DNA of 64,000 nucleotides from Patescibacteria group bacterium (GCA_038064195.1 JBBTTO010000003.1:114428-178427); one strand, 5' to 3'. Positions 17,675 to 53,381 are shown, counted from the stretch's first letter. Notes: generated by a model from the sequence alone, not told the origin. Numbers and translations are program-made.

Positions 17675-18589
17675 ATGCGTAACGTAACACTTGAAGAATT
17701 ATTGGAGGCCGGTGCTCATTTCGGGCATCAGGTAACTCGCCAAAACCCCAAAGCTCGGGACTATGTCTTTGAAGCTCGCGACAATATCCATATTATTGAT
17801 TTAGCCAAGACCAAAGAAGGCTTAGACGAAGCCGCTGCTTTTGTTAAGTCACTGGCTGCTAAAGGTGGAACTATGATTGTTCTTGGTGCTAAGCGTCAGG
17901 CAGAGCCGGTCGTTCGCGAACAAGCCAAAAGAGTTCAGGAAGCAGGTATCGACGGATTGTATTTTGTCAGCAATCGCTGGATCGGCGGCATACTCACCAA
18001 TTTTCCGGAGGTCAGTAAGAACTTCAAACGCCTCAAGGATCTGGGTAAATTTATGGATACTCCCTCTGAAAAGGCCCGTTTTACCAAAAAGGAAGTTTCG
18101 CTCATGGAAAAATCTCGTCAAAAGCTAGATAGTTTTTATTGGGGGGTGGCTGACATGACTCATATTCCTGATGCTGTTTTTATCATTGATACTCATTTGG
18201 AAGATTTGGCAGTCCGTGAAGCTATCGCGACTAAAGTCAAAACAGTCGGTATCACCGATACGAATGCCGACCCGACGATTATTGATTATCCGATCCCGGC
18301 TAACGATGATGCTGTGGGATCTGTACAGTTGATAGTTGCGCATATCATTGATGCGTGGATTGAAGGTCGTTCTGCACAGCAGAATGCAGAAGGCGGAGAG
18401 GTAAAGGGGACAAAAGAGACAAAAGCTCCAGTAAAAAAGGATAAAGAGGCTGAGAAGATCGTCGAAGCTGCCGAAAATGTCGATGACAAAATGGAAAAAA
18501 CAGTTGAAGCGGAAAAAGATCTGAAAGCGGTTGAAACTCCAGGCAAGGCTCCGGTGAAAAAAACTACCAAGAAAGCAAAAGCAGCATAG
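17675..18589 (+). CDS. rpsB: 30S ribosomal protein S2 with Lys/Ala-rich C-terminal extension
   Basis: LLEAGAHFGHQ...signature; conserved order rpsB-tsf. Confidence 0.95.
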   Translation: MRNVTLEELLEAGAHFGHQVTRQNPKARDYVFEARDNIHIIDLAKTKEGLDEAAAFVKSLAAKGGTMIVLGAKRQAEPVVREQAKRVQEAGIDGLYFVSNRWIGGILTNFPEVSKNFKRLKDLGKFMDTPSEKARFTKKEVSLMEKSRQKLDSFYWGVADMTHIPDAVFIIDTHLEDLAVREAIATKVKTVGITDTNADPTIIDYPIPANDDAVGSVQLIVAHIIDAWIEGRSAQQNAEGGEVKGTKETKAPVKKDKEAEKIVEAAENVDDKMEKTVEAEKDLKAVETPGKAPVKKTTKKAKAA

Positions 18590-18614
18590 CGCTAAGCGCT
18601 TTGCTCAAAGCGAG
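18585..18614. repeat. GCGC-family palindromic repeat at rpsB/tsf junction
   Basis: CATAGCGCTAAGCGCTTTGCTCAAAGCGAG; overlaps the rpsB stop. Confidence 0.6.
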
Positions 18615-18621
18615 AACAAAT

Positions 18622-19077
18622 ATGGCCAACGCAGATATCGCATTACTCAAAAAACTCCGCAGTGAAACTTCAGCAAGTATCTCTGATTGTCGAAATGCTT
18701 TAGAGGAGACGGACAATGACTATAAAAAAGCCGTTGAATGGCTTAAAAAGCGTGGTCTTGAGAAAGCTGCCAAAAAATCAGATCGTGAGACTAGTCAGGG
18801 TTTGGTTGAAGCATACATCCATAATGGCGGTAAAGTCGGAGCGCTTGTCGTCCTTCTTTGTGAAACTGACTTTGTTGCTCGCACAGATGAATTCAAAAAT
18901 CTGGCTCGCGAGATCGGCATGCAGGCCAGTGCCATGAATCCTGAAAGTGTCGAAGCACTCCTCAAACAGGAATATATCCGCGACGCTTCCCAAACGGTTG
19001 AGGATCTTATTAAAAATGTCATCGGCAAGCTTGGCGAAAATATTACGCTCAAGGAGTTCAAGAGATTCTCGATCTAG
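18622..19077 (+). CDS. tsf: elongation factor Ts, short form
   Basis: UBA-like N-terminus LLKKLRSETSASISDCRNAL; the start is taken at the ATG at 18622 (the listed ORF start at 18601 lies inside a dispersed repeat). Confidence 0.85.
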   Translation: MANADIALLKKLRSETSASISDCRNALEETDNDYKKAVEWLKKRGLEKAAKKSDRETSQGLVEAYIHNGGKVGALVVLLCETDFVARTDEFKNLAREIGMQASAMNPESVEALLKQEYIRDASQTVEDLIKNVIGKLGENITLKEFKRFSI

Positions 19078-19115
19078 ATTGTTGCATCAATTTATTATTA
19101 GCGTATAATTGACCC

Positions 19116-19673
19116 ATGGATAGCTTAGAAAACCTCAGACAGCAGATTCAAAAAGTCCTGGATCTTATCAAAAACGATATCAGTTCCATCCGTACAGGCA
19201 GAGCAGCGCCCAGTCTTATTGAAAATATCTCAATTGTGACATATGGTGGTTCGACAAAGCTTCGAGTACTCGAGCTTGCGACAATCGCTGCAACTGACCC
19301 TCAGACTCTGGTTATTACTCCCTTTGATCAAAGTACAAGAGAGGATATCAGAAAAGGGATTGTTGATGCGGGAACTGGTCTTAATCCAACAGATGATGGT
19401 CATATCCTGCGTATCACCATCCCGCCACTTTCCACTGAGCGTCGTGAAGAACTCATCAAGATGATGAATCACAAATTAGAAAACGGGAGAGTTATGATCA
19501 GACAAGCCAGACATGAGGCTATGAATGATATCAAAAAACAAGCTGAAAGTGATGGGTTATCTGAGGATGATCAGAGTAGGCTTGAGAAAGAAGCGCAAAA
19601 AATAGTTGATGAAAGCATTGCGACCATCGACGGCATGGGCAAGCAAAAAGAAGCAGAACTTTTGGCTATGTAG
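19116..19673 (+). CDS. frr: ribosome recycling factor
   Basis: Full-length RRF (185 aa) with the typical coiled-coil. Confidence 0.9.
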   Translation: MDSLENLRQQIQKVLDLIKNDISSIRTGRAAPSLIENISIVTYGGSTKLRVLELATIAATDPQTLVITPFDQSTREDIRKGIVDAGTGLNPTDDGHILRITIPPLSTERREELIKMMNHKLENGRVMIRQARHEAMNDIKKQAESDGLSEDDQSRLEKEAQKIVDESIATIDGMGKQKEAELLAM

Positions 19674-19690
19674 CCAAAAGTTCTCGGAAG

Positions 19691-19714
19691 GCGCGTAGCG
19701 GTTAGCGCAAAGCG
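19691..19714. repeat. GCGC-family repeat 5' of frameshifted four-helix-bundle gene
   Basis: GCGCGTAGCGGTTAGCGCAAAGCG. Confidence 0.55.
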
Positions 19715-19715
19715 T

Positions 19716-20077
19716 ATGGCATTTCGATTTGAAGAATTAGAAATATGGCAACTAGCAATAGCCTATACAAATAGCATTTATCTAATTTGTAAAACATTCC
19801 CCAAAGAAGAACTTTTTTCCTTACAGGACCAACTGAAAAGATGTGCTGCTTCTATTGCCGCCAATATTGCCGAAGGATCTGGCGCCAGCTCGAGAAAGAC
19901 TTTTGTCATTACCTTGATATTTCAATTAAGTCAGTCTACGAATCCGTTTCTCATTTGTATATTGCTAAACAACAAGGTTACATCAATGAAGAACAATTAG
20001 CAAAACTTTATGAAGATGCCGATAAGCTCTCTCGTAAGATACGTTCATTTAAGGCTTCCTTATTAAGGAACGCTTAG
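19716..20077 (+). pseudogene. four-helix-bundle (IVS-family) gene interrupted by a frameshift
   Basis: 19716-19910 encodes ...IAANIAEGSGASSRK. The family sequence continues in the next frame (DFCHYLDISIKS...LAKLYEDADKLSRKIRSF, 19841-20077). The shift lies around 19893-19900 (AGAAAGACTTTTG). Confidence 0.6.
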
Positions 20078-20103
20078 CGCTATGCCCTTTGCGCTTGGCG
20101 AGC
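20071..20103. repeat. GCGC-family repeat 3' of frameshifted four-helix-bundle gene
   Basis: CGCTTAGCGCTATGCCCTTTGCGCTTGGCGAGC. Confidence 0.55.
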
Positions 20104-20124
20104 TAGGTGTTATAATGATCCCTC

Positions 20125-21306
20125 ATGCTACTTACCGCGCTTGTTTTTTTACTCATCCTTTCGGTTCTGGTCCTCATTCATGAACTCGGGCATTTCTTAG
20201 TTGCCAAAAAATTAAATATCAAAGTTGAGGAGTTCGGTTTTGGTCTGCCGCCGCGTGTTTTTGGTATCAAACGGGGAGAGACAATCTATTCAATTAACTG
20301 GCTGCCGATTGGTGGCTTTGTCAAATTATACGGAGAAGATGACGCAGGCGCAGGTAAGGTTAGCGCAAAGCGCATAGCGCAAAGCGAGAAACCGAAAGCT
20401 CTTGCGAGAGCTTTCTATGCCAGGCCGGTCGGTCAGCGGGCAGCAGTAGTTGTCGCCGGTGTGGTCATGAATACACTGTTGGCTATTGTGATTTTTTACA
20501 TTTTTATGGGGGTCTCAGGTTTTCGAGCACAGCTGCCTCTTCTAAAAGACCATATATTTTACTTTGCGAATACAAGTATTAAGACTGATATTTTGATAAG
20601 TCAAGTTCAAAAAGATTCTCCTGCAGCTAAAATAGGTCTTCCTCAATATGCACAAATCGTGTCGTTAAATACTATCAAGCCCAGTACTCCTGAAGAATTC
20701 ACTTCAATCATTAAGAAAAGTCAGGGGAAGGAGCTTAGTATTACCTGGATTGATCCGAACACCCATAAAAAAACGACCAAGTCCGCAGTCCCGCGTGTCA
20801 ATCCGCCAAAGGGTCAAGGGGCTTTGGGGGTGAGCCTTTTTGGGGCAAGATCAGCCATACTGAATTATGAGACGCCAGTCCAAAAAGTTTTCTCTGGTAT
20901 CACTCATCCGATCAATCTCCTGCTGTACAATTTTGATTTGATCGGCAGTTTGATCAAGTCAGCAGTTAGGGATCATAACGCAACGGCTTTAGGTGAGGGA
21001 GTGGCAGGGCCGGTCGGGATCTATTCACTTGTCGGGACCATCGTACAGATCCCTAATATCAAAGAACGAACGCTCGAGCTTTTGAATTTGGCGGGAATTT
21101 TGTCTATTTCGTTGGCTTTCTTTAATGTCCTACCAATCCCGGCACTCGATGGGGGAAGACTCTTCTTTATCCTCATCGAAGGAGTCACCAGACGAAAAGT
21201 AAATCCCAAATATGAAACTTTAGCCCACACCATCGGTATGGCAGTTTTACTGCTGCTTATTGTGCTGATTACCTTTAAAGACATTTTTCAATTTGTGATT
21301 AAATAA
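20125..21306 (+). CDS. rseP: RIP metalloprotease RseP (site-2 protease, M50)
   Basis: HELGHF zinc motif, PDZ region, C-terminal LDGG. Confidence 0.85.
   Translation: MLLTALVFLLILSVLVLIHELGHFLVAKKLNIKVEEFGFGLPPRVFGIKRGETIYSINWLPIGGFVKLYGEDDAGAGKVSAKRIAQSEKPKALARAFYARPVGQRAAVVVAGVVMNTLLAIVIFYIFMGVSGFRAQLPLLKDHIFYFANTSIKTDILISQVQKDSPAAKIGLPQYAQIVSLNTIKPSTPEEFTSIIKKSQGKELSITWIDPNTHKKTTKSAVPRVNPPKGQGALGVSLFGARSAILNYETPVQKVFSGITHPINLLLYNFDLIGSLIKSAVRDHNATALGEGVAGPVGIYSLVGTIVQIPNIKERTLELLNLAGILSISLAFFNVLPIPALDGGRLFFILIEGVTRRKVNPKYETLAHTIGMAVLLLLIVLITFKDIFQFVIK
20358..20388. repeat. GCGC-family repeat inserted in-frame in rseP
   Basis: GGTTAGCGCAAAGCGCATAGCGCAAAGCGAG encodes VSAKRIAQSEK. Confidence 0.65.
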
Positions 21307-21419
21307 TTACGTCATCCTGGCTTGTCCAGGATCGATTCTGGATGCGTTCGCTTTGCTCCTTACCAGAATGACGTCCCTCTGGACTTGTATTTTATTTAGG
21401 ATCGTCTTATACTTCAGTT

Positions 21420-22565: not shown

Positions 22566-22666
22566 ATAACCGCTGAAAAACACGGAACCAAAGTTTGGAC
22601 ACACTGAACAACGCAGAAGCGCCTCTAGAGTAATTGTTCAGAATGTGGTATACATAATGCTACTTC

Positions 22667-23449: not shown

Positions 23450-23545
23450 TCACGAATGGATACGAATTATTACTACGAATGAGTCCAAATATTCGGGATT
23501 ATTCAGACTAAACATCCGGATTCATTAGTGATTTAATTAAGTATT

Positions 23546-24973: not shown

Positions 24974-24977
24974 CTCT

Positions 24978-25685: not shown

Positions 25686-25690
25686 GTAAT

Positions 25691-26656
25691 ATGCAAATAG
25701 GATTTATCGGACTTGGCAAAATGGGCACTCGGATGGTATTTAAGCTTCTTGAAGGGGGACATGAGGTTGTGGTTTGGAATAGATCAACGGAGCCGATAAA
25801 AGATTTAGAATTTAGAATTCAGGATTCAGAATCGGAGAAATATTTTAAGACTGCTAATACAATTAAGGATTTGATTTCTCAATTAGATAAGCCTCGAATT
25901 ATTTGGTCTATGCTGCCGGCAGGAGGGGTGACTGAGTCGGCTCTTAAAGAAATTGCAAATTATGTTGAAAAGGGAGATATCGTCGTCGACGGGGGCAATG
26001 CGTTTTATAAAGACACGCAAAGACGTAGCGAAGAGCTTAGCGCAAAGGGCATAGCGTTTTTAGGTATAGGAGTTAGCGGTGGAATCAAGGCTGTCGATAA
26101 AGGATATCCCTTGATGGTAGGGGGAGACAAGTCGGCATTTGAGGAAATAAAACCGATCCTTGAAACGCTTATTAAGCCGGACGGGCCAGCCTCGACTAGC
26201 GCGAGTCTAGGCGGGGGGTATGAGTATTTTGGGACAGGCGGAGCCGGGCATTTCGTAAAAATGGTCCATAACGGTATCGAGTACGGCATGATGCAAGCAA
26301 TTGGTGAAGGATATGGCGTCCTTGAGAAAGCGCCATATGAAATAGATCTGGTAAAAGTCAGTCAGCTCTGGCAAAAAAATACGATAGTCACGAGTTATCT
26401 TAATGAGTGTGCGAAAGATGCATTGGAGAAAGACCCGACTCTGTCAGGTCTTGACGGTGTCATCGATGCCACCGGGGAAGCAGAGTGGACGGTCAACCAA
26501 GCCCGCGAAGAAGGAGTCTATGCTGAGAATATCGACCAGTCACTTGATTTTCGCAGGCGTTCAAAAACTGATAAAAATGTTAGCTCTTCTTTTGCTGCGC
26601 GGATGGTCGCAGCTCTGCGCCGCGAATTCGGCGGCCACGCCGTGAAGAAAAAATAA
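25691..26656 (+). CDS. gnd: 6-phosphogluconate dehydrogenase (short, decarboxylating-type/YqeC-like)
   Basis: IGLGKMG...VWNRS NAD-binding N-terminus and 6PGD C-domain; carries two in-frame repeat insertions. Confidence 0.8.
   Translation: MQIGFIGLGKMGTRMVFKLLEGGHEVVVWNRSTEPIKDLEFRIQDSESEKYFKTANTIKDLISQLDKPRIIWSMLPAGGVTESALKEIANYVEKGDIVVDGGNAFYKDTQRRSEELSAKGIAFLGIGVSGGIKAVDKGYPLMVGGDKSAFEEIKPILETLIKPDGPASTSASLGGGYEYFGTGGAGHFVKMVHNGIEYGMMQAIGEGYGVLEKAPYEIDLVKVSQLWQKNTIVTSYLNECAKDALEKDPTLSGLDGVIDATGEAEWTVNQAREEGVYAENIDQSLDFRRRSKTDKNVSSSFAARMVAALRREFGGHAVKKK
25801..25834. repeat. AGAATT-type repeat inserted in-frame in gnd
   Basis: AGATTTAGAATTTAGAATTCAGGATTCAGAATCG encodes KDLEFRIQDSES in an otherwise conserved region. 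Confidence 0.6.
26022..26056. repeat. GCGCTAAGCGC-family palindromic repeat inserted in-frame in gnd
   Basis: GACGTAGCGAAGAGCTTAGCGCAAAGGGCATAGCG. Confidence 0.6.
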
Positions 26657-29623: not shown

Positions 29624-30526
29624 ATGAAAATAATCGTTACCCACAATGCTCCTGACTGGGATGCTATCAGCTCAGTTTGGCTCATCAAGAGATATTTACC
29701 CGGTTGGCGGGATGCTATTGTCGAATTTGTTCCGGCAGGGACCAGACGAGCCAAGAGCCAAGAGCTAGGAGATATGATTGACCCGATTGAAATTGTCGGT
29801 GAGGATGAAGTCATCCATGTTGATACCGGACTTGGGCCGCTTGACCACCATCAGACAGCAGACAAAACAGTTTGTGGTGCAACTAAGACCTGGGACTATA
29901 TCCAAATGCAAATCACATTAGCAGGTGAGGAATTGAAAGCCGAACATGTCGAAGCTGTCTCACGAATAGTCGCTATTATTTTGGCGGATGATCATTTCAG
30001 AGAAGTGTTTTGGGCAGATCCGATGGCTGATTATCATGAATTCTCACTCATTGGTTTGCTTGAGGGCATCAAATTATCCCATCCTGATCAGGATAATTTT
30101 TATATGGATTTCGGGATGCAGTGTCTGGACGGAATGGTGCATACTTTTGAAAGTCGTATTTGGTCAGAAAAGGAAATTGCCGATAAAGGCATCAGTTTTC
30201 GCGTTAAGCGTGGCCGCGCCTTGGCCTTTGAGACGGTGAATGACGGTGTAATAAAACTCGCGCAAAAAATGGGCTATATCCTCGTCGTCCGAAAGGATCC
30301 GCGTAAAGGATATGTGCGGATCAAAGCCCGCCCTGCATCAGGCAAAGATGATGATCTCGATCTGACAGCAGCCTATGAAAAGCTGCAAGAGATCGACTCA
30401 AAGGCAACGTGGTTCCTGCACGTCTCCAAAAAAATGCTCCTGAACGGTACTCCTAAAAATCCTAAAATGGTACCCACTACTCTGACGCTTGAGCAGATTA
30501 TTGAAGTTTTAAAAAGTATTTACTAG
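29624..30526 (+). CDS. DHH-family phosphoesterase (NrnA-like)
   Basis: HNAPDWDAISS and GLGPLDHHQ motifs; start placed at MKIIVTH. Confidence 0.7.
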   Translation: MKIIVTHNAPDWDAISSVWLIKRYLPGWRDAIVEFVPAGTRRAKSQELGDMIDPIEIVGEDEVIHVDTGLGPLDHHQTADKTVCGATKTWDYIQMQITLAGEELKAEHVEAVSRIVAIILADDHFREVFWADPMADYHEFSLIGLLEGIKLSHPDQDNFYMDFGMQCLDGMVHTFESRIWSEKEIADKGISFRVKRGRALAFETVNDGVIKLAQKMGYILVVRKDPRKGYVRIKARPASGKDDDLDLTAAYEKLQEIDSKATWFLHVSKKMLLNGTPKNPKMVPTTLTLEQIIEVLKSIY

Positions 30527-30612
30527 CAAAGCGCGTAGCGGATAGCGCTAGGCGTTGTTTTTATTTCAAGATCTTGAAACCCTTGGCTCTTTGCGCTATG
30601 CTCTAAGCGATT
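30526..30612. repeat. composite GCGC-family repeat pair flanking palindrome TTTCAAGATCTTGAAA
   Basis: GCAAAGCGCGTAGCGGATAGCGCTAGGCG ... CTCTTTGCGCTATGCTCTAAGCGATT. Confidence 0.6.
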
Positions 30613-30615
30613 ACT

Positions 30616-30959: not shown

Positions 30960-31152
30960 GCGGGCTTCTCTTTAGGCTTCAGGTTTACATGTCTTCGCTT
31001 TTGATGTAAAATAGAGCCCTACGGAATGTAGATCCGCAAAAGGTTAGCAAGGGGGCTTGCCACTCCGAAGCCCGACTCAAAGCTTGGGATAAGGAATTTA
31101 AGGTGAACCCTCCTTCGTTAAAACTTCGGCGGGCGAAGGGTGGTGTTTTTTT
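30960..31152 (+). promoter_or_regulatory. structured leader / possible small RNA upstream of rpsU
   Basis: Several hairpins ending in CCTTCG...CGAAGG plus a T7 run; the GGGTGG purine tract that could serve as the rpsU RBS lies inside the last stem. Confidence 0.3.
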
Positions 31153-31335
31153 ATGGTATTTGTTAAGAAACAACCGGGTGACACAGATGATGCGATTATT
31201 CGCAAGTTCTCGCGTAAAGTAATTGATGCGGGGATTGTGAATGAGGCCAAGCGTCGACAATTTTATCTCAAACCTTCTCTTGCCAAAAAATTAAAGGCTG
31301 AAGAGTCTCGCCGCGCGAGGAAGAAGATCATTTAA
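31153..31335 (+). CDS. rpsU: 30S ribosomal protein S21
   Basis: 60 aa, basic; S21 signature ...FYLKPS...RARKK. Confidence 0.85.
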   Translation: MVFVKKQPGDTDDAIIRKFSRKVIDAGIVNEAKRRQFYLKPSLAKKLKAEESRRARKKII

Positions 31336-31337
31336 TT

Positions 31338-31411
31338 GCATAGCGCTTAGCGCAAAAGGGCCAAGCGTTCCATTTTAACTTTACGCTACGCGCTTACCGC
31401 TATCCGCTTGC
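31338..31411. repeat. GCGC-family palindromic repeat pair
   Basis: GCATAGCGCTTAGCGCAAAAGGGCCAAGCG ... CGCTACGCGCTTACCGCTATCCGCTTGC. Confidence 0.6.
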
Positions 31412-31802: not shown

Positions 31803-31814
31803 TACGGTATCTCG

Positions 31815-31870
31815 CCTAGCGCATAGGGCAAAGCGAAATAACGCTTGGCGCTTACCGCTTTGCGCTAAGC
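31815..31870. repeat. GCGC-family palindromic repeat
   Basis: CCTAGCGCATAGGGCAAAGCG...CGCTTGGCGCTTACCGCTTTGCGCTAAGC. Confidence 0.6.
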
Positions 31871-31876
31871 AACTAT

Positions 31877-33421
31877 ATGGTTTATTACAGAACGTATCGA
31901 CCGCAAAAAATAAGTGATTTGGATAGTGAAGCTGTCCGTCGCAAACTTTTTTCTGTTCTTCAGGTAGCAGCGCCTACCTTTTTACAAATCCCGCATGCTT
32001 TTCTTTTTACCGGACCTAAAGGTCTGGGCAAGACCTCAACAGCTCGTATTGTGGCGAAAGTAATAAATTGCACGGGTAGAACGCATAGCGCTAAGCGCTT
32101 AGCGCAAAGCGATTCCATTGAGCCATGCAACGAATGTCAGCAATGTGTATCGATTACGAATGGCACAAATTTGGATGTCTTTGAGATTGATGCCGCGTCA
32201 AATCGGGGAATTGATGAGATACGTGATTTAAAAGAAAAAATTCGTCTGAGTCCGGTATCTGCCCAAAAAAAAGTCTATATCATTGATGAAGTGCATATGC
32301 TGACAACTGAAGCATTTAACGCGCTTCTGAAAACGCTTGAGGAGCCGCCAAGCCATGCTGTTTTTATCCTGTGCACGACTGAAGCGCATAAAGTCCCCGC
32401 GACAATTCTCTCGCGCTGTCTTCATATCGGATTTAAAAGGGCGACAGATGATGAGTTGGTGAGGGCATTACAGCGAATTGTTAAAGGGGAAGGATTAAAG
32501 ATAGATGAGCAGACGCTTCATGAAATTGCTAAGCTGGCAGACGGAGGTTTTAGAGACGGGACAAAAATTCTTGAAGAACTGGTGGCACTCTCAGATGGAA
32601 AAGATATCAATGCAGCGCTTTTGGAAAAGGGTTACCAGGTCACGTCAATGAACCAAAGTATCCGGGAGCTGATTGATGCGTGTGCAGAAAAAAATCTGCA
32701 GGCAAGCATTGCCGTTGTCAGTAAAGCGACGGACGCGGGAACTGACATGAGCTATCTCCTTTCGGAGTTGATTGAAGCGTTGCATACTCTTTTGCTCTCG
32801 CGGGTAGGTGTGGGAGAAGCGTTGTTTGTTGCGGAACTGGAGATTGAGGACCTGAGGGAGTTACTGGCTCTTTTAACAAAGGCTGCCGGTGAAATGAAAT
32901 ATACGGTCGTGCCGTCATTACCGCTTGAGTTGGCTCTGGTGAGCTGGTGCAGCGGGGCACAAGAATTAAGAATTAAGAATGAAGAATTAAGAATAGAAAA
33001 AAAAGAAACCGTGGGAAAAGAGGGGGTGACGGTGGCTTCGATGAGAAGAGAGGCAGGTAATATAGCAAAGCTTAAAGCTGTTAATGGTGAGGAACAGGAT
33101 GTAAAAGAAAAAGCAGTCAAAGGTGATCCGTCTGAGGTAAGCATACTCAACTATGCAGCAAGGGGGGATCATTCACAGGAATGGATTGATGCATTGTGGA
33201 AAAATATTATTATTGAGATAAAAAGCCACAATCATATGATAGCGGGAGTATTACGTTCGTGCCGAATTGTAAGCTACGATCGTAAAGTCCTGACTATTGA
33301 GGCGGCAGCCTCCTTTCACAAAGAGAAATTGGTCGAGCCCAAGACCTTTGCCGCGCTACTGGCAGTATGCGAGAAGTTAATTGGTAATCCGATTGAGGTT
33401 TCAATTACATTGAAACAGTAG
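31877..33421 (+). CDS. dnaX: DNA polymerase III subunit gamma/tau
   Basis: GPKGLGKTS Walker A, CNECQQC zinc module, SRC motif; carries two in-frame repeat insertions. Confidence 0.9.
   Translation: MVYYRTYRPQKISDLDSEAVRRKLFSVLQVAAPTFLQIPHAFLFTGPKGLGKTSTARIVAKVINCTGRTHSAKRLAQSDSIEPCNECQQCVSITNGTNLDVFEIDAASNRGIDEIRDLKEKIRLSPVSAQKKVYIIDEVHMLTTEAFNALLKTLEEPPSHAVFILCTTEAHKVPATILSRCLHIGFKRATDDELVRALQRIVKGEGLKIDEQTLHEIAKLADGGFRDGTKILEELVALSDGKDINAALLEKGYQVTSMNQSIRELIDACAEKNLQASIAVVSKATDAGTDMSYLLSELIEALHTLLLSRVGVGEALFVAELEIEDLRELLALLTKAAGEMKYTVVPSLPLELALVSWCSGAQELRIKNEELRIEKKETVGKEGVTVASMRREAGNIAKLKAVNGEEQDVKEKAVKGDPSEVSILNYAARGDHSQEWIDALWKNIIIEIKSHNHMIAGVLRSCRIVSYDRKVLTIEAAASFHKEKLVEPKTFAALLAVCEKLIGNPIEVSITLKQ
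32083..32111. repeat. GCGC-family repeat inserted in-frame in dnaX (between Walker A and Zn module)
   Basis: GCATAGCGCTAAGCGCTTAGCGCAAAGCG encodes HSAKRLAQSD. Confidence 0.65.
32961..32996. repeat. AGAATT-type repeat inserted in-frame in dnaX
   Basis: AAGAATTAAGAATTAAGAATGAAGAATTAAGAATAG encodes QELRIKNEELRIE. Confidence 0.6.
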
Positions 33422-33521
33422 TATAAAGTATTAGGTATAAGGTATTATGTATTAGCAAATTATTTATACTGTATACTTAATACAAAATACATGATACATA
33501 TTTAGGGGGGGTGATTGAATT

Positions 33522-35496: not shown

Positions 35497-36111
35497 ATGA
35501 GAATTCCCAAGGCTATTCAGTCAACCATTGAATCATTTGAAAAATTACCAGGCATCGGGCCCAAAACTGCTCAACGCCTGACATTTTATCTTCTCCACGT
35601 TCCTCAACACGAACTTGATCGGTTTGCGGAGGCTGTCAAAAACCTTAAAGTCGGTACGGTCCTCTGCTCAGTTTGCTTTAGCGTAGGTGAGGAAGATCCG
35701 TGCAGTTACTGCGCGAGCAGTTCACGGGATCACGGTACTGTCTGTGTCGTCGAGCAGGCACTCGATGTCCTGGCTCTTGAGAAAAGCGGACGGTATAACG
35801 GTGTGTATCATGTCCTGCATGGCAAAATCGACCCGCTTAATAGTATCGGACCGGATGAGATCTATATTCGTCAGTTATTTGAGAGGATAAAAAACAGCCA
35901 AAACGGTCATAGTATCAAAGAGCTTATCCTGGCGACCAATCCGACTATGGAGGGCGAGGCGACAGCCATGTATATAGCTCAGGAACTCAAAAATCAAAAT
36001 TCAAAAGTCAAAATTACGAGGATAGGACGGGGACTCCCAATCGGTGCTGATCTGGAATACGCTGACAGTGTGACACTGGAACGCGCCATGGAGAGCAGGA
36101 GCCAGTATTAA
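35497..36111 (+). CDS. recR: recombination protein RecR
   Basis: HhH LPGIGPKTAQR, C4 zinc finger, Toprim. Confidence 0.9.
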   Translation: MRIPKAIQSTIESFEKLPGIGPKTAQRLTFYLLHVPQHELDRFAEAVKNLKVGTVLCSVCFSVGEEDPCSYCASSSRDHGTVCVVEQALDVLALEKSGRYNGVYHVLHGKIDPLNSIGPDEIYIRQLFERIKNSQNGHSIKELILATNPTMEGEATAMYIAQELKNQNSKVKITRIGRGLPIGADLEYADSVTLERAMESRSQY

Positions 36112-36272
36112 AATCGTCCCGATGATATTTTTCATACGGGATCCTGATAAGATTTCCGACGAACAAAAAGAAGAAATGGGCATAATCAGGTAGCTTGTAT
36201 TAAGTAGTATGTATCATGTATGAAGGTACTGAATATACAAAATACGTAATACCAAATACATAATACAAATTT

Positions 36273-36824
36273 ATGGCAAATAATCCGTTTGGTTCATTTG
36301 AAGATGCCTTTGAACAAGGTGTCTCAACAGTTAAGCAACAGGTCAAACAACAAGCCTCAACGACAGTACAGTCGGCTACTTCTCAGGTTACCGGGTCAAC
36401 TCCAACTCCCACCCCCATCCTGCATGGAGGACAAGCGGATAGTAAGGCACTTACCGATCAGTTCAACGAAGCAGGAGCGAGTAATCAGCAATCAGCAAAC
36501 AGTGATCAGCAAAATGACCCTGTCGCTCAGGCAGCTCAGCTCCAACAGCTGGATGCTAAAAGTCAGGAAGAACAACAAAAGAAGTTAGTCGAAGCACGCA
36601 AGCAACTCAAGCAGCATCGGGAACAGCACACAACAACGTATTTTGATCCAACATTTAATAAGCATCATCCCGAGCCGACTGTCCAAGAACGTCTGGAACA
36701 GCAAGAGCAAGAAAAAGAACAAAAGAAAATGGCAGACCTTGAGGAGCAGAAGAAAAAGGCACCACCGATTGCTCTTAAGCAGGCCCAAACTCGAGCGGAA
36801 ATTAACCGCGGCGCCTCTGGGTAA
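36273..36824 (+). CDS. Gln-rich low-complexity hypothetical protein
   Basis: Q/E/K-rich, no recognisable domain. Confidence 0.4.
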   Translation: MANNPFGSFEDAFEQGVSTVKQQVKQQASTTVQSATSQVTGSTPTPTPILHGGQADSKALTDQFNEAGASNQQSANSDQQNDPVAQAAQLQQLDAKSQEEQQKKLVEARKQLKQHREQHTTTYFDPTFNKHHPEPTVQERLEQQEQEKEQKKMADLEEQKKKAPPIALKQAQTRAEINRGASG

Positions 36825-39457: not shown

Positions 39458-39626
39458 TAGGTCTATATATTATAGAGCACCTGCTTCATCGTAGCTTCTG
39501 ATGTGTTAGAATAGGGACATAATTTTTAATTTGAAATTTTCAATTCTCATTTAATATTAAATGTTTTAATATTTAAAGTTTAAAAATTTACTTCAAATTA
39601 AAAATTGTAAATTGAAAATTTGACAT

Positions 39627-41105
39627 ATGTTGCGTCTCTACAACTCTTTATCTCGACAAATAGAAGAATTTCAGCCGATTCAGCCTCCACATGTCGGTAT
39701 GTATACCTGCGGTCCGACAGTCTATCAATACGCTCATATCGGTAATTTCCGAGCCTATATGACAGCCGATATTCTCGTGCGCGTACTTAAACATAATAAC
39801 TATGACCTGAAATTTGTCATGAACATTACTGACGTCGGGCATCTGGTCAGTGATGCAGATAGTGGAGAGGATAAGCTTGAAAAATCAGCCAAAAAAGAAG
39901 GCAAGACTGCTTGGGATATCGCTGAGCTCTACACAGATGCATTTCTCAAAGACTATGATGCTTTAGGCCTTACTCGACCTGATGTTTTAGCGAAGGCAAC
40001 GGACCACGTTCAGGAGCAAATAGATTTGATTAAAAGACTTGAGGCAAAAGGCTTTACTTATATCATCAGTGACGGAGTCTACTTTGACACCTCAAAATTA
40101 GCAGACTACGGCAAGCTCTCAACCCTTGACCAAATTAAAGAAGGAGCACGGGTAGAGATCAATGAAGAGAAAAGAAATCCACGTGACTTTGCTCTGTGGA
40201 AATTCAGTGAACCAAAAGGTACAGGACCCTTCGACTCTGCTCAGGCCGTTCGAGGCTCTGAGGAGCCCCCAGGCTCTCGAAGAGGTGACGCTGTTTCACG
40301 TCGTCATATGGAATGGGAGAGTCCATGGGGAGTAGGCTTCCCGGGGTGGCATATTGAGTGTAGTGCAATGAGTATGAAATATCTGGGTGAGACTTTCGAC
40401 ATTCATACGGGAGGGGTGGATCATATCTCAATCCATCATACTAATGAGATTGCCCAGTCTGAAGCAGCGACGGGCAAAAAATTTGTCGACTACTGGGTTC
40501 ATACAGCCTTTATGCTGGTACAGGGACAGAAAATGAGTAAAAGCCTGGGGAATACATACAAGCTGTCTGACTTGGTGGGTAACGGCTACCTGCCTGTCCA
40601 CTTGCGTTATCTGTATCTCCAGACCCATTATCGGCAGGAAATGAATTTTACCTGGGAGAGTTTAGAGGCAGCCAAGACAGCACTTGAGCGCCTGACCAAC
40701 AGTGTGGCGATGTGGGATAAGGGAGAGGGAGAAGTCTCAAAAAAATTTGAAGAGAAATTCCTAATGGCGCTCAATGATGATTTGAATACCCCGCGGGCTT
40801 TAGCAGTCGTGTGGGAGCTGATGAAGTCAGATATCAAGCCAGGCCAGAAGCGGGCGACTCTCCTGAAAATGGATGAGGTACTCGGCCTCGGGCTCCAGCG
40901 GGCAGGGAAGAAGCCCGACTTCGTTAAAACTACGACGGGCAAGCAGGAGGCTATCCCAGAGGTCGTACAATCGCTTCTGGATGAGCGTACGAGAGTGCGG
41001 GCTCAACAGGACTTTCAGCGTTCTGATGAGCTCAGAGAGCAGATTCGTGGCCTTGGCTATGACGTCCAGGATAGCCCCAGCGGCCCCAGCCTCAAAAAGC
41101 TCTAA
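39627..41105 (+). CDS. cysS: cysteinyl-tRNA synthetase (with ~25-aa GC-rich insertion before the WHIECSAM motif)
   Basis: [26 protein letters not shown]. Confidence 0.9.
40914..40944. repeat. direct repeat copy 1 (inside cysS)
   Basis: CCCGACTTCGTTAAAACTACGACGGGCAAGC; 29/31 identical to 45059-45089. Confidence 0.8.
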
Positions 41106-45089: not shown

Positions 45090-45121
45090 TCCACGCCGCA
45101 CGACGTGCTATGAGGAGCAAA

Positions 45122-45270: not shown

Positions 45271-45279
45271 GTGGGTTTT

Positions 45280-45726: not shown

Positions 45727-45822
45727 ATGTCAATCATAAAAAGAAAAGCCTGGATTGTCAAACAACAAGATCAGAATGAGAATGGCGGAGCCTGTAGCTT
45801 GACTTTTTTTACGATTTCGGGA

Positions 45823-46914: not shown

Positions 46915-46920
46915 ACTACT

Positions 46921-47241
46921 ATGCAAGACCCGATTAACGAGTTGATTACTTTTCTTCAGCAGAAGGGACTCACACAAGAGGAGATCGCAACAGAGTGTGA
47001 GAATTTGACGTGGCAGGCCTCAGACAAGTTCCATGAAGAACTTATGTCTATCCTTATCCCTGAAGACAAGCAGGCAATTGACGCGATTGGAGACGATCTG
47101 GAGGCAGAAGCTGAGATGAAAAGGCGCTATGTAGCTAGAACGGCTAAAGATCCTCAGGATGTGATGCGTGATATCCTCACGCAGCAAGCTAAGCAGGTTA
47201 TGCGTGAATACGACACATCGTCCTCAATGACCGCGCAATAA
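46921..47241 (+). CDS. acidic hypothetical protein
   Basis: 106 aa, no motif. Confidence 0.4.
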   Translation: MQDPINELITFLQQKGLTQEEIATECENLTWQASDKFHEELMSILIPEDKQAIDAIGDDLEAEAEMKRRYVARTAKDPQDVMRDILTQQAKQVMREYDTSSSMTAQ

Positions 47242-47946
47242 GGTATTAGTGCGTTCCCCTTTTAAAAACGACATATAGATATCAAATTTGAGCAGATTTA
47301 TTAATTCACTAAGCAGGTGGTGGTGGCGGGTGTTGATAATTCCGTTCACCGGTATCCCATGCTCCTTAAAGGCAGCCACGAGTCGCTCCTGCTGTGTAAA
47401 AGGAATACGTTCGTCACGCATAGCAAGGTAGACAAGAACTCTTTTAACCTTAATCTGACTGAGATTATTGACAGGTGAGATCGGAGCCCAGAGCTTCTTG
47501 AGGGATGAAAGTGAAAATTTCTTTTTACGCAGGCTTTTTTTTAGTTCAGGTACAGTTTTGCTCCATGTCCAGACTATCTCTGCCAGATCGGCTCCACTGA
47601 GATTGAGCACGATGCTTTCCAGGCGGGGAACTGCGTTGGCCACCATCAGCGCCACTCCTGTGCCTTGACTCAGAGCAAAAAGTGACAGATGCTGTTGCTG
47701 CCTCTTAGGAAGCTGGCTTATAATTTCCAAACATTTATTTTTCACTGACATAAAATGTTGTACGGTTAACCCGGGATCGGTGGTCAACAATGTTTTGTCC
47801 CAGGTGAGGATGATGGCCTTAAAGCCATAGGAGGTGAAGAGTTGGCCAAGGAGCCAGAGATGCCATTGACGGACACCCCAGCCGGCAAAGACTATGACGA
47901 CTTTGCTATTTTTTTGACCGTAGATTTTATATGAGGAGGTGAACAT
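47224..47946 (-). CDS. alpha/beta-hydrolase fold esterase/lipase-like protein
   Basis: VIVFAGWG oxyanion-type segment and a GxSxG-like nucleophile elbow (ALSQGTG). Confidence 0.65.
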   Translation of the reverse strand: MFTSSYKIYGQKNSKVVIVFAGWGVRQWHLWLLGQLFTSYGFKAIILTWDKTLLTTDPGLTVQHFMSVKNKCLEIISQLPKRQQQHLSLFALSQGTGVALMVANAVPRLESIVLNLSGADLAEIVWTWSKTVPELKKSLRKKKFSLSSLKKLWAPISPVNNLSQIKVKRVLVYLAMRDERIPFTQQERLVAAFKEHGIPVNGIINTRHHHLLSELINLLKFDIYMSFLKGERTNTLLRGH

Positions 47947-48006
47947 TTATGAATAATATACGAAAGATAGTGAATAGTAAATGGTTTGAAGAGGGATAGA
48001 ATTACT

Positions 48007-48055
48007 GGTCAGTGGTCAGTGGTCAGTGGTCAGTGGTCAGTGGTCAGTGGTCAGT
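48007..48055. repeat. heptanucleotide microsatellite (GGTCAGT)x7
   Basis: Seven perfect tandem copies plus a partial one, in the divergent intergenic region. Confidence 0.95.
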
Positions 48056-48099
48056 GGTTGAATTGGAATGCAAGCTACAGGTGAGTGTATAAATACGTT

Positions 48100-48309
48100 T
48101 CATGGGTAGTGACAAATCTGTCACTCATTTCAAGCCGCTTTTGGCTTGATGGAGATGATAGACGTGGCACATATGCCATGTCCGGTCAGAAAGAGGGGGC
48201 TTCGGCAAGAGCGAAACGCAATCCACCGCAAGCGTCCCCACGCTATCATAGCGGTAATTCCGTATCACTCTCACCGAAGCAAAGGGGAGGCGCCCGTCGG
48301 CGCCTTTTT
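48100..48309 (+). ncRNA. candidate small RNA: extended -10 promoter (TGTATAAAT, 48086-48094), GC-rich structured body, intrinsic terminator GGCGCC-CGTC-GGCGCC+T5 (48289-48309)
   Basis: No ribosome-binding site or plausible protein; all three forward frames are open only because of the high GC. Confidence 0.35.
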
Positions 48310-48782
48310 AGCCTTTGGTAAGGCGAGGTGTGTCACTGTGGGGAACACGCTCATGGGGAAGTTTTATTACCTCCTTTCTCGCGGGTTACTCCCGTTGACA
48401 TCCCTCATATCAGGGGGAGTTGTGACCCCCGCCTGGGCCACAACCCCCTGGAGGAGGTGTGTTCGGCAGGGTGCAACTACCGAACTGTCAGTATCGTCTC
48501 ATTGGGTGCGGAGATCGGTACTCACAGTCCGGTAGTTATTGATAAAATTACCGTTAAATCTAACAGGACTCAGCCTGTAGCTTGTCAAAGATCATTTTCT
48601 CCTAGATTAGGAGGACCACGTTTGACGTGGTCAAAGGACTAGATAGTTAGATAGCACGGTGATCCACGCAAATTGTGAATTATAGTGCTGTCACCTATTT
48701 ACCCTATCTTGATTGAATAGTCAAGAGAGAGCTTACTCATATTTTCATTGACAGGGAAAAGTTTTCCCAGCACAATAAGAGT

Positions 48783-49355
48783 ATGTTTATTATCCGTAAA
48801 ATCTACTATTTCTTACTTGACACCATTCAGACAATTCTGATTGTCGCATCAGTCCTCATGATTCTCTATGCCTTCGTCATCCAACCAAATGAGGTCAGTG
48901 GACTGTCCATGTACCCGACATTTAAGGATCATGATTATCTCCTGAGTTATCTTCTGGATGTCAAATTTGATAAATACAAAAAAGGCGATGTGGTGGTCTT
49001 TCATTCGCCTGTCGAACTTGACAAGTTATATATTAAGCGGGTCATTGCAACGCCCGGTGATACGATCATGGTGCAAAACGGCAAGGTTTTTCTCAATGGT
49101 TCACAACTTGATGAGAGTTTGTATCTGAGTCCGGATGTAGAGACGCATGGCGGAGCCTTCTTGCAAGAGGGTCTTCCCAAGACAATACCTACGGGGACAA
49201 TAGTTGTGATGGGAGATAACAGACCGAACAGTTCAGATAGTCGGGAGTGGGGATTTCTGGACAAATCACGCGTAGTCGGGCGCTCAGTGGTGCGCTTTTT
49301 CCCCTTTAATACTTTCCACCTTATCCACAATCCGTACACGGAGCACAAGCTTTGA
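48783..49355 (+). CDS. lepB: signal peptidase I
   Basis: SM..PT catalytic Ser region, GDNR...S.DSR motif. Confidence 0.85.
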   Translation: MFIIRKIYYFLLDTIQTILIVASVLMILYAFVIQPNEVSGLSMYPTFKDHDYLLSYLLDVKFDKYKKGDVVVFHSPVELDKLYIKRVIATPGDTIMVQNGKVFLNGSQLDESLYLSPDVETHGGAFLQEGLPKTIPTGTIVVMGDNRPNSSDSREWGFLDKSRVVGRSVVRFFPFNTFHLIHNPYTEHKL

Positions 49356-49430
49356 ATCTTTTGGTCGGCCTGCCCATACAAATCACCCTGGGGTGAGTAT
49401 GGGACAGGCCTTTCTTCCTCCTGACTGGAA

Positions 49431-49757
49431 TTAGTCTGCTGCATCGCTGAGCTCCTGAGGATTTCTCCCATAGGAAGCCTTGACAATTGCTTTAACTAAA
49501 CGTCCGAAGCGGTTATTGAGCGTGGTGTCGAGGTTAACGACTCCCCATCCATTTCGCCAACTCTTTTGTTCATAGGCAACATATGGTTGTGCTGCCTCCA
49601 AAACGTCCCGATCAGTGATGATCTGCTGCCAGTTGATCTGCCCAACTTTTCTCGAATTGGGGAGAGAGGCGATGCAGACCGCGATGACTATGTTGTTGAC
49701 TGTATACGGATCGTAAACAATCCGTATCATGACACCTTCATCATTTTCCATGAGCAT
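49431..49757 (-). CDS. hypothetical protein
   Basis: 108-aa ORF with no motif. Confidence 0.35.
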   Translation of the reverse strand: MLMENDEGVMIRIVYDPYTVNNIVIAVCIASLPNSRKVGQINWQQIITDRDVLEAAQPYVAYEQKSWRNGWGVVNLDTTLNNRFGRLVKAIVKASYGRNPQELSDAAD

Positions 49758-49912
49758 TCTCCGGGTTGAGTTCTCAATAGACGACGTTCGGTTCAGTTGA
49801 AAGGAACTTGGTTACTTAATAAAAAAGTGCCTGTCAGCCAAATCGACAGCTCTTCTTTACAAAGTAGATTGGATTGTAACTAAAGCACATTCGTAAAGCA
49901 ATACGCTTCAGT

Positions 49913-52138: not shown

Positions 52139-52492
52139 GGATAATTGTATTCAGTATAAAGTATCAGATAGTAAGTATAAAGCGGTTTTGTATTTTTCGC
52201 CCGAAGTGTTTGAAGGTTAGGCTGCTCGTCTCCGCGAGGTTTTTTATGCAAACCTTACCTCTATGTGCGTTTGGTGTTCATATCATACCAGGGATCAGCT
52301 TTAGTTTTATCATTGTCATTTAATAATCCTAATCCGCCCATTTCAATCCAGATTCTTGCGGCATGTGAGGCTGGAGTCACGTAGTAAGGTTCATTTTTGT
52401 AGGTAGCTATTGCTTGTTGGAGTTCCTGAGTAAGAGGGGAATCTGGATCAGGGGTAGATCCTTTCTTTATATATTTTTGTTATCATAGATCT

Positions 52493-52948
52493 ATGAGGAG
52501 ATTTTTTCTTTCTTTCATTACTTTTTTAGTACTTGGGATATTCATAGTTTCTCCTATTCGTGCTGAGGATATCCACACAACTGACAAGTTACTAACAGTT
52601 GATACCGGCAAGCAAATGCTCTATGCCTGGGAAGGGGGAAGAATAGTCTACCAGACACCTGTGGCTACCGGGCTCCCGAAGTCTCCGACTGTCAAAGGAA
52701 CATTTAAGATTTATGTTAAGTATGAGACTCAGGCACATATGCGTGGTGTATCGCCCTATATCGGTAAATACGACTTTAAAAATGTACCGTATGTCATGTA
52801 TTTCCATGAAGGCTACGGTGTTCATGGAGCGTACTGGCATAACAGTTTTGGTACCAGGAGAAGCAATGGCTGTGTCAATGTTCCGGTCTATGCAGCCAAG
52901 TGGCTCTTTGAATTTGCTCCGATAGGTACGACTGTTATGGTATTTTAG
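52493..52948 (+). CDS. L,D-transpeptidase (YkuD family)
   Basis: HG...SNGCVNV catalytic motif; signal peptide. Confidence 0.8.
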   Translation: MRRFFLSFITFLVLGIFIVSPIRAEDIHTTDKLLTVDTGKQMLYAWEGGRIVYQTPVATGLPKSPTVKGTFKIYVKYETQAHMRGVSPYIGKYDFKNVPYVMYFHEGYGVHGAYWHNSFGTRRSNGCVNVPVYAAKWLFEFAPIGTTVMVF

Positions 52949-52955
52949 GATCTTC

Positions 52956-53321
52956 TTATTTCTTCTTGAGGAGTTCGATGTCAAAAATGAGGGTAGCAAA
53001 GCCGGGGATATCTGGCTCGACTCCGTATTTGCCATATCCTAAGTGATGGGGGATAGTAAGACGACGCTTCCCGCCGACTTTCATCCCAGGTATTCCAATA
53101 TCCCAACCCTGGATGACATAACCCGCGCCAATAGCGACTTCAAAGGGCATATCGCGGTCATGTGAACTGTCAAATTTTTTGCCCGGTTTGCCTGATTCGC
53201 TTAGCCAACCCGTATAGTGCACTGTAATATGGTCACCGGATTTGACTTCGTCTCCGTTACCTACTTTGAGGTCTTCGATTTTTAGTTCCTGTGGGTCATC
53301 CATTCGACACAGTATAAACAA
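52956..53321 (-). CDS. FKBP-type peptidyl-prolyl isomerase
   Basis: VHYTGWL...GKKFDSS...GWDIGIPGMKVGGKRRL. Confidence 0.85.
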   Translation of the reverse strand: MFILCRMDDPQELKIEDLKVGNGDEVKSGDHITVHYTGWLSESGKPGKKFDSSHDRDMPFEVAIGAGYVIQGWDIGIPGMKVGGKRRLTIPHHLGYGKYGVEPDIPGFATLIFDIELLKKK

Positions 53322-53352
53322 TCATTTGGGTTTTGTGGGTAAGAAAATGCTC

Positions 53353-53381
53353 GCAATGCGCTAAGCGCTTGGCGCAGAGCG
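53353..53381. repeat. GCGC-family palindromic repeat overlapping the 3' end of the methyltransferase gene
   Basis: GCAATGCGCTAAGCGCTTGGCGCAGAGCG; supplies the last ~7 codons (LRSAPSA*). Confidence 0.6.

Follow-up and report, generated by a model that had tools for sequence, protein, structure and literature searches.

We analysed a 64,000-nucleotide stretch of DNA from a Patescibacteria group bacterium (GCA_038064195.1 JBBTTO010000003.1:114428-178427; below, the whole of this stretch is called the window) and, within it, a family of short repeats with an AGCGC core that lie near rpsB, tsf, frr, rseP, gnd, a HIT gene, the S21 gene, ybeY, dnaX, ybaB and recR. Our results indicate that these AGCGC repeats are probably the arms of a cassette of the intervening sequence (IVS) type, built around a gene for a four-helix-bundle protein of the S23p family, together with derivatives of this cassette that lack the open reading frame (ORF). 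The complete unit would consist of a four-helix-bundle gene of ~120 codons with ~35 nt of heptamers right before its start codon and the inverted complement of these right after its stop codon. The window belongs to a genome of ~1.08 Mb from Hainich groundwater, from where contigs with an identical DnaX have been assembled repeatedly. Its protein relatives are uncultured Patescibacteria, several of which were labelled Candidatus Levybacteria by their sources.

AGCGC repeats are polar arrays of imperfect heptamers

To define the family, four consecutive heptamers at a time were scored against the pattern NNAGCGC (maximum 20, threshold 15/20). In the window, 45 overlapping placements scored at least 15/20, versus none in 20 first-order Markov simulations of the window. 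The repeat family that a preliminary description of this DNA had pointed out is thus real. Direct reading also recovered the motif at every coordinate which that description had listed. After merging, the placements corresponded to 12 arms at 8 loci. The family is dispersed, as had been stated, but the earlier figure of at least ten loci has to be replaced by this count, and the copy reported in gnd is not a member.

The repeats had been described as units built of palindromic half-sites. Instead, each arm is a tandem array of imperfect heptamers, WWAGCGC, with a 7-bp period (for instance ATAGCGC TAAGCGC TTAGCGC AAAGCGA in dnaX), and the supposed half-sites GCGCTAAGCGC, TTAGCGCAAAGCG and CGCTTGGCGCTTACCGC are read-outs of the heptamer array on either strand. 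In the heptamer register, positions 1 and 2 are nearly always A or T, positions 3-6 are 88-98% conserved, and position 7 is C in 67% of units. The palindromic look of the arrays arises because the GCGC core is self-complementary and because the arrays occur in inverted pairs. The arms have a polarity and fixed ends: four well-matching units come after a degenerate outer one, which often reads xxCTCGC, the arms measure 28-35 nt in all, and the inner end reads ...AGCG plus an A or T in place of C in 10 of the 12 arms. In every pair, the inner ends point to each other or to the ORF between them.

Rfam contains no family that matches the arrays, 40 four-helix-bundle loci described below, or the spacer at 30.9-31.2 kb. 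The idea that the repeats relate to GCGC restriction avoidance or methylation was rejected, as 172 GCGC sites were counted versus 162 expected and there is thus no avoidance. A perfect 16-nt palindrome at 56983-56998, CGCTTTGCGCAAAGCG, resembles two inner units of the family placed back to back; since its array score is only 14-15/20, it may be a minimal copy or chance.

Heptamer arms bracket four-helix-bundle genes

Two genes of the PF05635/TIGR02436 type ("23S rRNA IVS protein", S23p) are present in the window, and each lies between inverted heptamer arms (Table 1). Gene 1 matches PF05635 with 1.3e-22 and TIGR02436 with 3.8e-27, and its cassette fills all of the intergenic DNA from glyA to a convergent gene for a surface protein, with arrays that touch both stop codons. 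Gene 2 has arms of the AGCGC family. That two repeat copies bracket this frameshifted gene had been noticed before; the observation was confirmed and proved to be the key to the interpretation. Gene 2 matches PF05635 with 1.1e-19 and, once the frameshift is repaired, TIGR02436 with 2.6e-33, while its orthologue in the related locus L171 is intact and encodes 120 aa. A third gene was found between ybaB and recR on L007, a contig of a distant metagenome-assembled genome (MAG), where the arms are of the AAGATTC / GAATCTT type. In all three cases the gene is bracketed by inverted heptamer arrays, and the unit differs each time. The complementary ends pair at 23/25 aligned positions in cassette 1 and at 24/33 in cassette 2.

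The closest PDB entry to the four-helix-bundle proteins of the window is 2RLD, which has five chains. A profile search found no transposase domain in the PF05635 genes, and PADLOC gave no defence-system match for their proteins. The sole Rfam match in the window is a tRNA, and cassettes 1 and 2 are thus located outside 23S rRNA helix 25/45. This tRNA, a tRNA-Ser at 56069-56154, is the only one in the 64 kb, and ARAGORN assigned it the anticodon ACT, which would be unusual for serine if right. As for L007 (CAZZEB010000006.1; 37% GC), it is labelled as an uncultured gammaproteobacterial MAG; its gene order dnaX-ybaB-cassette-recR and the heptamer hairpin in its DnaX follow the pattern of relatives in the candidate phyla radiation (CPR), and the contig may have been mis-binned or mislabelled.

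A comparison with relatives bears on the age of these units. Cassette 2 with its arms is identical at 411 of 425 positions (96.7%) between the window and L171, versus 86% for rseP and 80% for frr, from which it follows that the cassette post-dates the separation of the two genomes or was exchanged between them. In locus L091, a homologue of gene 1 (71% identical) shares the ATTCAGA arms and has unrelated genes as neighbours.

The site of cassette 2 has some further features. A perfect palindrome with a 13-bp stem, AGAACTTTTGGCTATGTAGCCAAAAGTTCT, is centred on the frr stop codon (19655-19684), such that the 13 nt past this stop are an inverted copy of the frr end and adjoin the left arm of the cassette. 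This palindrome is present in L171 and absent in L172, a locus of a Levybacteria relative, which has no four-helix-bundle gene there, and it may be the scar of an insertion mechanism. At 1139-1790 of L171, a NUDIX gene lies after frr, and between it and the four-helix-bundle cassette the final ~85 nt of frr are present once more, a layout suggestive of an insertion in which this gene end was duplicated. The frr-rseP spacer of L172 (3978-4149), without a four-helix-bundle gene, contains two inverted arrays (GCGTATG-type and GCTATAA-type) around a loop of ~85 nt; this pair may be the remnant of a cassette that decayed at the same site.

The cassette architecture recurs across phyla

Metagenomic contigs were scanned with an alignment of the three four-helix-bundle proteins (gene 1, gene 2, and that of L007) as the query, and 80 loci with a GC content of 25-61% were kept, these being the best of the first 600 pattern matches. 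A contig scan with DnaX gave mostly distant phyla, and only L007, L010 and L043 were useful loci from it. For the 73 metagenomic loci with both flanks, lag-7 arrays were called with a cut-off of 15/21. Such arrays were present upstream of the four-helix-bundle ORF in 51/73 loci, downstream in 63/73, and on both sides in 45/73, versus 0-6 loci per end, and no more than 2 with arrays at both, for control lags of 5, 6, 8, 9, 10 and 11. The flanks were inverted repeats in 45 of 68 loci and direct repeats in 2, with 0 for shuffled flanks. The arms abut the ORF, with a median gap of 1 nt to either side; aligned stems have a median length of 35 nt (interquartile range 30-42), and arm length ranges from 3 to >13 units. 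Within 100 nt of the ORF ends the array density was 7.07/kb, versus 0.22/kb elsewhere in the same loci, which is a 32-fold enrichment. Nearby gene-less arrays share the family of the cassette: among arrays >150 nt away, 9/25 were an exact match to the cassette heptamer of their own locus, versus 1.6% for the cassettes of other loci (p = 1e-10). Around 40 related four-helix-bundle loci, Rfam detected no rRNA.

Plasmids show the same arrangement with more variation, with heptamer arrays on both sides of the gene in 4/6 loci. The arrays are inverted on the Nostoc punctiforme plasmid (GTCAGGA x5) and on a Riemerella plasmid. The gamma plasmid of PCC 7120 has heptamer arrays on both sides with units that differ between the sides, the array of a Calothrix plasmid is one-sided, and the Anabaena 90 plasmid has inverted flanks that are not clearly heptameric. 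On the plasmids of Pseudanabaena (L178) and Anabaena sp. 90 (L179) the four-helix-bundle gene lies between cas6 and cas4, and its position in these cas loci may reflect insertion rather than a Cas function.

Arms without a gene and their turnover

Besides the pair around gene 2, the window contains three ORF-less pairs of AGCGC arms, which can form hairpins, span 60-90 nt and are located in operon spacers (Table 1). The loop of the pair at 30521-30613 includes a perfect 16-nt palindrome, TTTCAAGATCTTGAAA (30564-30579). Two single arms overlap gene ends. One of them (18579-18613) includes TAG, the stop codon of rpsB, and leaves 8 nt to the ATG of tsf at 18622; L171 has the same arm at the orthologous position. 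The N-terminal extension of tsf is indeed false and derived from the repeat, as the TTG start of the ORF at 18601 is within the array and the real start is the ATG. Likewise, the arm at 53348-53382 provides the last codons and the stop codon of the minus-strand methyltransferase gene (53361-54038), in agreement with the earlier proposal, and the protein end ...LRSAPSA is encoded within the array.

The repeats had been put forward as dispersed structured elements, and this is supported. Copies differ between close relatives, both in the presence or absence of the dnaX arm (see below) and in the families found at the same spacers. Hairpins of the AGCGC family occupy the DHH-HIT, S21-ybeY and ybeY-dnaX spacers in the window, and in the related locus L087 the hairpins of all three belong to the AATAGT family. 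In L171, the ybeY-dnaX spacer is of the AATAGT family and the S21-ybeY spacer of another family. In L172, only 10-16 nt separate the DHH-like gene from the HIT gene and S21 from ybeY, and the locus ends at the ybeY stop codon. The same-strain contigs L001-L006 and L173 were uninformative, as they are at least 99.86% identical to the window and show no array polymorphism.

The window contains many heptamer families besides AGCGC. Tandem Repeats Finder returned 48 rows, of which 22 have period 7 with many different units, and a lag-autocorrelation scan gave 22 arrays at lag 7, 14 at lag 14, and at most 3 at the other lags in the range of 4-13. Non-coding DNA, which makes up ~13% of the window, holds about two thirds of the heptamer arrays. 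A perfect array, (TGGTCAG)x7.6, occupies 48006-48058 in the spacer of the divergent genes 47224-47946 (-) and 48146-48535 (+); it is adjoined by an AATAGT-family-like stretch, CCATTTACTATTCACTATC, and L173, a further assembly of this population, has the same 7 copies. The HIT-S21 spacer may contain a small RNA gene at 30984-31150, which has a promoter-like TTTACA-17-TAAAAT (30984-31012) and, at 31124-31150, a GC-rich hairpin with a T-run behind it. For this region there was no Rfam match, even at E = 1.

Table 1. Heptamer arrays, cassettes and related features of the window.
Feature	Coordinates	Strand	Units and remarks
Cassette 1	7321..7774	-	intact gene 7353-7742; inverted ATTCAGA arrays 7321-7357 and 7740-7774
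AGCGC single arm	18579..18613	+	AAGCAGC ATAGCGC TAAGCGC TTTGCTC AAAGCGA
Cassette 2, left arm	19681..19715	+	TTCTCGG AAGGCGC GTAGCGG TTAGCGC AAAGCGT; abuts ATG of four-helix-bundle gene
Four-helix-bundle gene 2	19716..20077	+	PF05635/TIGR02436; 1-nt deletion near 19893; between frr and rseP
Cassette 2, right arm	20070..20104	-	minus-strand AGCTCGC CAAGCGC AAAGGGC ATAGCGC TAAGCGT; holds ORF stop codon
rseP in-frame single arm	20360..20387	+	TTAGCGC AAAGCGC ATAGCGC AAAGCGA, encoding SAKRIAQS
ATTCAGA-family array in gnd	25794..25835	+	in frame, encodes DLEFRIQDSES; no length change
Native gnd coding sequence, not a member	26030..26057	+	EELSAKGIAF; array likeness by chance
ORF-less inverted AGCGC pair	30521..30613		30521-30555 (+), 30579-30613 (-); fills spacer of DHH-like gene and HIT gene
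ORF-less inverted AGCGC pair	31333..31410		31333-31368 (+), 31383-31410 (-); S21-ybeY spacer
ORF-less inverted AGCGC pair	31809..31875		31809-31836 (+), 31841-31875 (-); 4-nt loop; ybeY-dnaX spacer
dnaX in-frame single arm	32078..32112	+	AGAACGC ATAGCGC TAAGCGC TTAGCGC AAAGCGA, encoding HSAKRLAQS
Inverted pair, GTATTAG-type heptamer arrays	33417..33502		dnaX-ybaB spacer
Inverted pair, TGTATxA / ATACxxA heptamer arrays	36196..36271		spacer after recR
Inverted pair, AATTTxx / AAATTxx heptamer arrays	39518..39630		upstream of cysS
AGCGC single arm	53348..53382	+	TGCTCGC AATGCGC TAAGCGC TTGGCGC AGAGCGT

Arrays within coding sequences

In-frame insertions had been claimed for dnaX, rseP and gnd, and the three cases turned out differently. 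For dnaX, comparison with orthologues confirmed a genuine lineage-specific change. About 30 relatives with 57-86% identity have the loop TGRKDTSGKDIE in common, whereas the window has TGRTHSAKRLAQSDSIE, which is longer by 5 residues, and the array is absent from the DNA of L087, which is 86% identical. Compared with the E. coli gamma protein, the segment has 11 extra residues, located between the first Cys of the zinc module and the second. The loop is a hot spot, being longer than 14 residues in 42 of 120 homologues, with a maximum of 53. DNA sequences were read for three of the long loops, and each of these is a heptamer array with other units: an in-frame hairpin of AGCTAGA-type units in L090, one of AGCAGCC units in L007, and an AGCGC-like single arm in L088, a 56%-identical homologue.

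For rseP, the claim holds only in part. The arm is in frame, located in a hypervariable linker after GGFVKLYGED, but this linker has the same length (23 residues) in the window as in L171, L172 and P0241. L171 carries the same arm with a few substitutions, and in L172 this position is taken by a TAAAAAT array. Judged from these sequences, the rseP case is a replacement in a variable linker, not a net insertion. The arms in RseP and DnaX sit in the one orientation and frame that lacks stop codons.

The supposed gnd copy at 26022-26056 is ancestral and not an insertion. EELSAKGIAF aligns without gaps with 60 orthologues, and the DNA encoding it (GCA AAG GGC ATA GCG TTT) is conserved in L171 and in L172, for which a pattern scan of the 15.9-kb locus gave no AGCGC arrays. 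The ATTCAGA-family array elsewhere in gnd (25794-25835) is identical in L171, and a related ATTCAAA-type array is found at the same place in L172. Heptamer arrays were also seen in other coding regions of the window: AAGAATT x5 in the C-terminal half of dnaX (32953-33004), TCAAAAA in recR (35981-36019), AATCAGC in the ORF 36273-36824 (36473-36512), and GAGCCAA in the DHH-like gene (29743-29779).

Comparison with known repeat systems

The closest relative of the window cassettes is the 23S rRNA IVS of Coxiella and Leptospira (Ralph & McClelland 1993; Warrier et al. 2016, PMC4990558), with which they share a PF05635 ORF that is prone to decay, a terminal inverted stem of ~28 bp, heptamers directly upstream of the ATG, and a total length of ~430 nt. 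In Coxiella burnetii, the IVS is 428 nt long and includes the S23p ORF, whose ATG is immediately preceded by 3-4 GACAGAT heptamers in tandem, a number that varies among strains; the 28-bp terminal stem of the IVS is cut by RNase III, which leads to removal from the transcript, and S23p appears not to be expressed (PMC4990558). In the rRNA IVSs of Coxiella, Leptospira and Salmonella alike, the paired arms make up a duplex of ~28 bp that is cut by RNase III. The S23p protein of Xanthomonas is described as a homopentameric ring of four-helix bundles (Lin 2006, as cited in PMC4990558). For CPR bacteria, 23S_rRNA_IVP ORFs were reported in rRNA insertions (PMC11270868), and S23p-type genes were reported wedged between cas genes (PMC3936711), in both cases with no mention of repeats. 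In the full-text literature we found no general description of heptamer arms, and heptamers and S23p were treated together only in PMC4990558, for Coxiella only. The general rule that four-helix-bundle genes across phyla lie in inverted heptamer arrays, with nearby gene-less arrays sharing their family, thus appears not to have been described previously. Unlike the rRNA IVSs, the cassettes of the window are located in spacers of protein-coding operons and not in helix 25/45, and their arms also occur without a gene and, as single arms, in frame within essential genes.

Cyanobacteria have heptamer repeats termed short tandemly repeated repetitive (STRR) sequences, reportedly described by Mazel in 1990. 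The STRR/TAACTGA repeats of cyanobacteria, Beggiatoaceae and Bacteroidetes (MacGregor 2015, PMC4679880) resemble the arrays of the window in that they are tandem heptanucleotides, mostly intergenic and often directly 5' of start codons. They occur in taxa that have four-helix-bundle genes, and repeats of this type flank the plasmid-borne four-helix-bundle genes of Nostoc, Calothrix and Pseudanabaena. STRR/TAACTGA repeats were described as direct repeats without an associated gene, whereas the arrays considered here are imperfect, have defined ends, form inverted pairs and are tied to a gene.

REP/REPIN-RAYT systems are similar to the present one in being short dispersed families that form inverted pairs and also flank one small gene, and in having a sequence specific to the genome at spacer positions that recur. 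They differ in that RAYT is an IS200/IS605-type transposase, whereas here the gene encodes a four-helix bundle without a known nuclease fold, and in that the repeats here are heptamer arrays and not single imperfect palindromes. Of the features of miniature inverted-repeat transposable elements, the inverted arms are present; there is no direct target duplication at the junctions inspected, and the parent cassette has no known transposase. Avd, the accessory protein of diversity-generating retroelements, is a pentamer. It belongs to the same superfamily, with a weak match to NF033474 (1e-4, below the family cut-off), but the genes of the window score with TIGR02436 and have no reverse transcriptase or template/variable repeat pair next to them.

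Weighing the explanations

If the AGCGC repeats are arms of an S23p cassette, this cassette would be mobile and would spread as a DNA unit of ORF plus arms, with the gene-less arms as non-autonomous or decayed derivatives. Its tolerance within operons would be explained by processing of the paired arms in the RNA, or by their doing no harm there, and the heptamer units would turn over through slippage and replacement.

Several observations weigh against this interpretation. No transposase, recombinase or, at the junctions inspected, target-site duplication was found, and hence no mobility mechanism can be named. The gene of cassette 2 is broken in this genome while its arms persist, and no signature motif of an RNase III gene was found within the 64-kb window. 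Mismatches in the stems show no G:U bias (G:U on the sense strand 53, A:C 53, other 199) and thus no sign of selection on a sense-strand RNA structure, and folding of the window hairpins gave only a modest gain over shuffles (z = -1.0 to -2.1); together, these two results favour symmetry at the DNA level over a selected RNA structure. The in-frame arrays alter protein length by 0 (rseP), 0 (the ATTCAGA array in gnd) and +5 residues (dnaX), which does not correspond to simple insertion of a 35-nt arm and looks more like overwriting or in-place evolution. The Pseudanabaena plasmid has arrays (AGCTAAA x10 or more and AGCCAAA x9) that are direct and not inverted. Finally, the 80 metagenomic loci are not a random sample, given the way they were selected.

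A more far-reaching version of the cassette hypothesis, which we consider possible but offer only tentatively, is that S23p genes and inverted heptamer arms constitute a widespread and previously unrecognised autonomous/non-autonomous system akin to the RAYT/REPINs. The pentamer would then recognise its own arm with about one heptamer per protomer, and the gene-less arms would be its dependants.

Among the alternatives, the one that survives best, though we regard it as unlikely, is that a pentameric ring of four-helix bundles binds the heptamer arrays in a sequence-specific way, comparable to TRAP and HutP with their triplet arrays. In that case the gene would be autoregulated, and the gene-less arrays would be a regulon or processing sites rather than mobile DNA. 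This fits with the arms abutting the starts of the cassette gene, tsf, the HIT gene, ybeY and dnaX, with the five conserved core positions next to two spacer positions that are A/T only, and with the finding that distal arrays carry the heptamer of the resident cassette. It is also consistent with a median arm of 35 nt, or 5 x 7, given the five chains of 2RLD and the S23p homopentamer attributed to Lin 2006 in PMC4990558. However, the gene of the AGCGC cassette is a pseudogene here and yet 12 arms remain, S23p of Coxiella is apparently unexpressed (PMC4990558), and arm length varies from 3 to >13 units. In addition, the lack of G:U bias argues against a function of the sense-strand RNA, and the copies in coding loops, as well as the replacement of one family by another at orthologous spacers, are hard to reconcile with a regulon.

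A considerably less probable explanation is that the arrays are ordinary heptanucleotide microsatellites, generated by polymerase slippage and subsequently decayed, with an incidental link to the gene and incidental inverted pairing. Heptanucleotides are the commonest class of long simple repeats in many prokaryotes, for which slippage was proposed (Mrazek 2007, as reported in PMC4679880), the number of heptamers in Coxiella varies by strain (PMC4990558), and the window itself has lag-7 arrays of many units as well as the perfect (TGGTCAG)x7.6. Slippage would not be expected to produce one WWAGCGC family with the same polarity and inner end 12 times, arrays in inverted pairs, a 32-fold enrichment at the ends of four-helix-bundle ORFs, or a cassette that is more conserved than its flanks. 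The flank, inversion, polarity and density data thus largely refute slippage as the sole explanation, although it may account for changes in unit number within arms.

The preliminary description had likened the repeats to Rickettsia palindromic elements. These elements, from the work of Ogata et al. in 2000, are said to be 100-150 bp long and to be translated in frame in surface loops of essential proteins. The comparison is apt insofar as selfish-looking repeats are read through in frame in essential proteins (dnaX and rseP). A miniature element of this kind, inserting in frame and unrelated to the four-helix-bundle gene, would also account for the lineage-specific segment in DnaX, for the fact that 42 of 120 homologues have insertions in this DnaX loop, and for the dispersed copies. 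We nevertheless disfavour it as highly improbable: the units of the window are heptamer arrays of 28-35 nt and not palindromes of 100-150 bp, the Rickettsia elements are not heptamer-periodic and have no four-helix-bundle gene, net insertion was found only in dnaX, and the gnd case is ancestral. Moreover, AGCGC arms bracket a four-helix-bundle gene both in the window and in L171, and this architecture is general. That the hairpins are intrinsic terminators or attenuators of this lineage can practically be dismissed, because, despite positions directly 3' of stop codons and a T-run after the arm at 30536-30560, terminator-like sites are not enriched (21 vs 17.2 +/- 4.5 expected), most pairs are without a T-tail and lie inside operons right before the next start codon, and copies occur within coding sequence.

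Implications

The finding touches on two questions of long standing: the function and spread of S23p/23S_rRNA_IVP genes and rRNA IVSs, which date from around 1990, and where the surplus of heptanucleotide repeats in prokaryotes comes from, which has been asked since the STRR reports. Heptamer arrays as arms of S23p cassettes would tie these questions together, in CPR bacteria, many metagenomic lineages, and several cyanobacterial and Riemerella plasmids. At the practical level, the arrays create false ORF starts and ends in annotations, as for tsf and the methyltransferase gene, and they introduce lineage-specific peptide segments, as in DnaX and RseP, into CPR protein alignments. The cassette also offers a reason for the presence of S23p genes in cas operons without these genes necessarily being Cas components. 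If the wider hypothesis of an autonomous/non-autonomous system is true, it would unite 23S rRNA IVSs, the STRR-type repeats of cyanobacteria, and the 'S23 ribosomal protein' genes that are wedged into operons, including cas operons, and this system would rewrite spacers, and even loops of essential proteins, in the streamlined genomes of the CPR.

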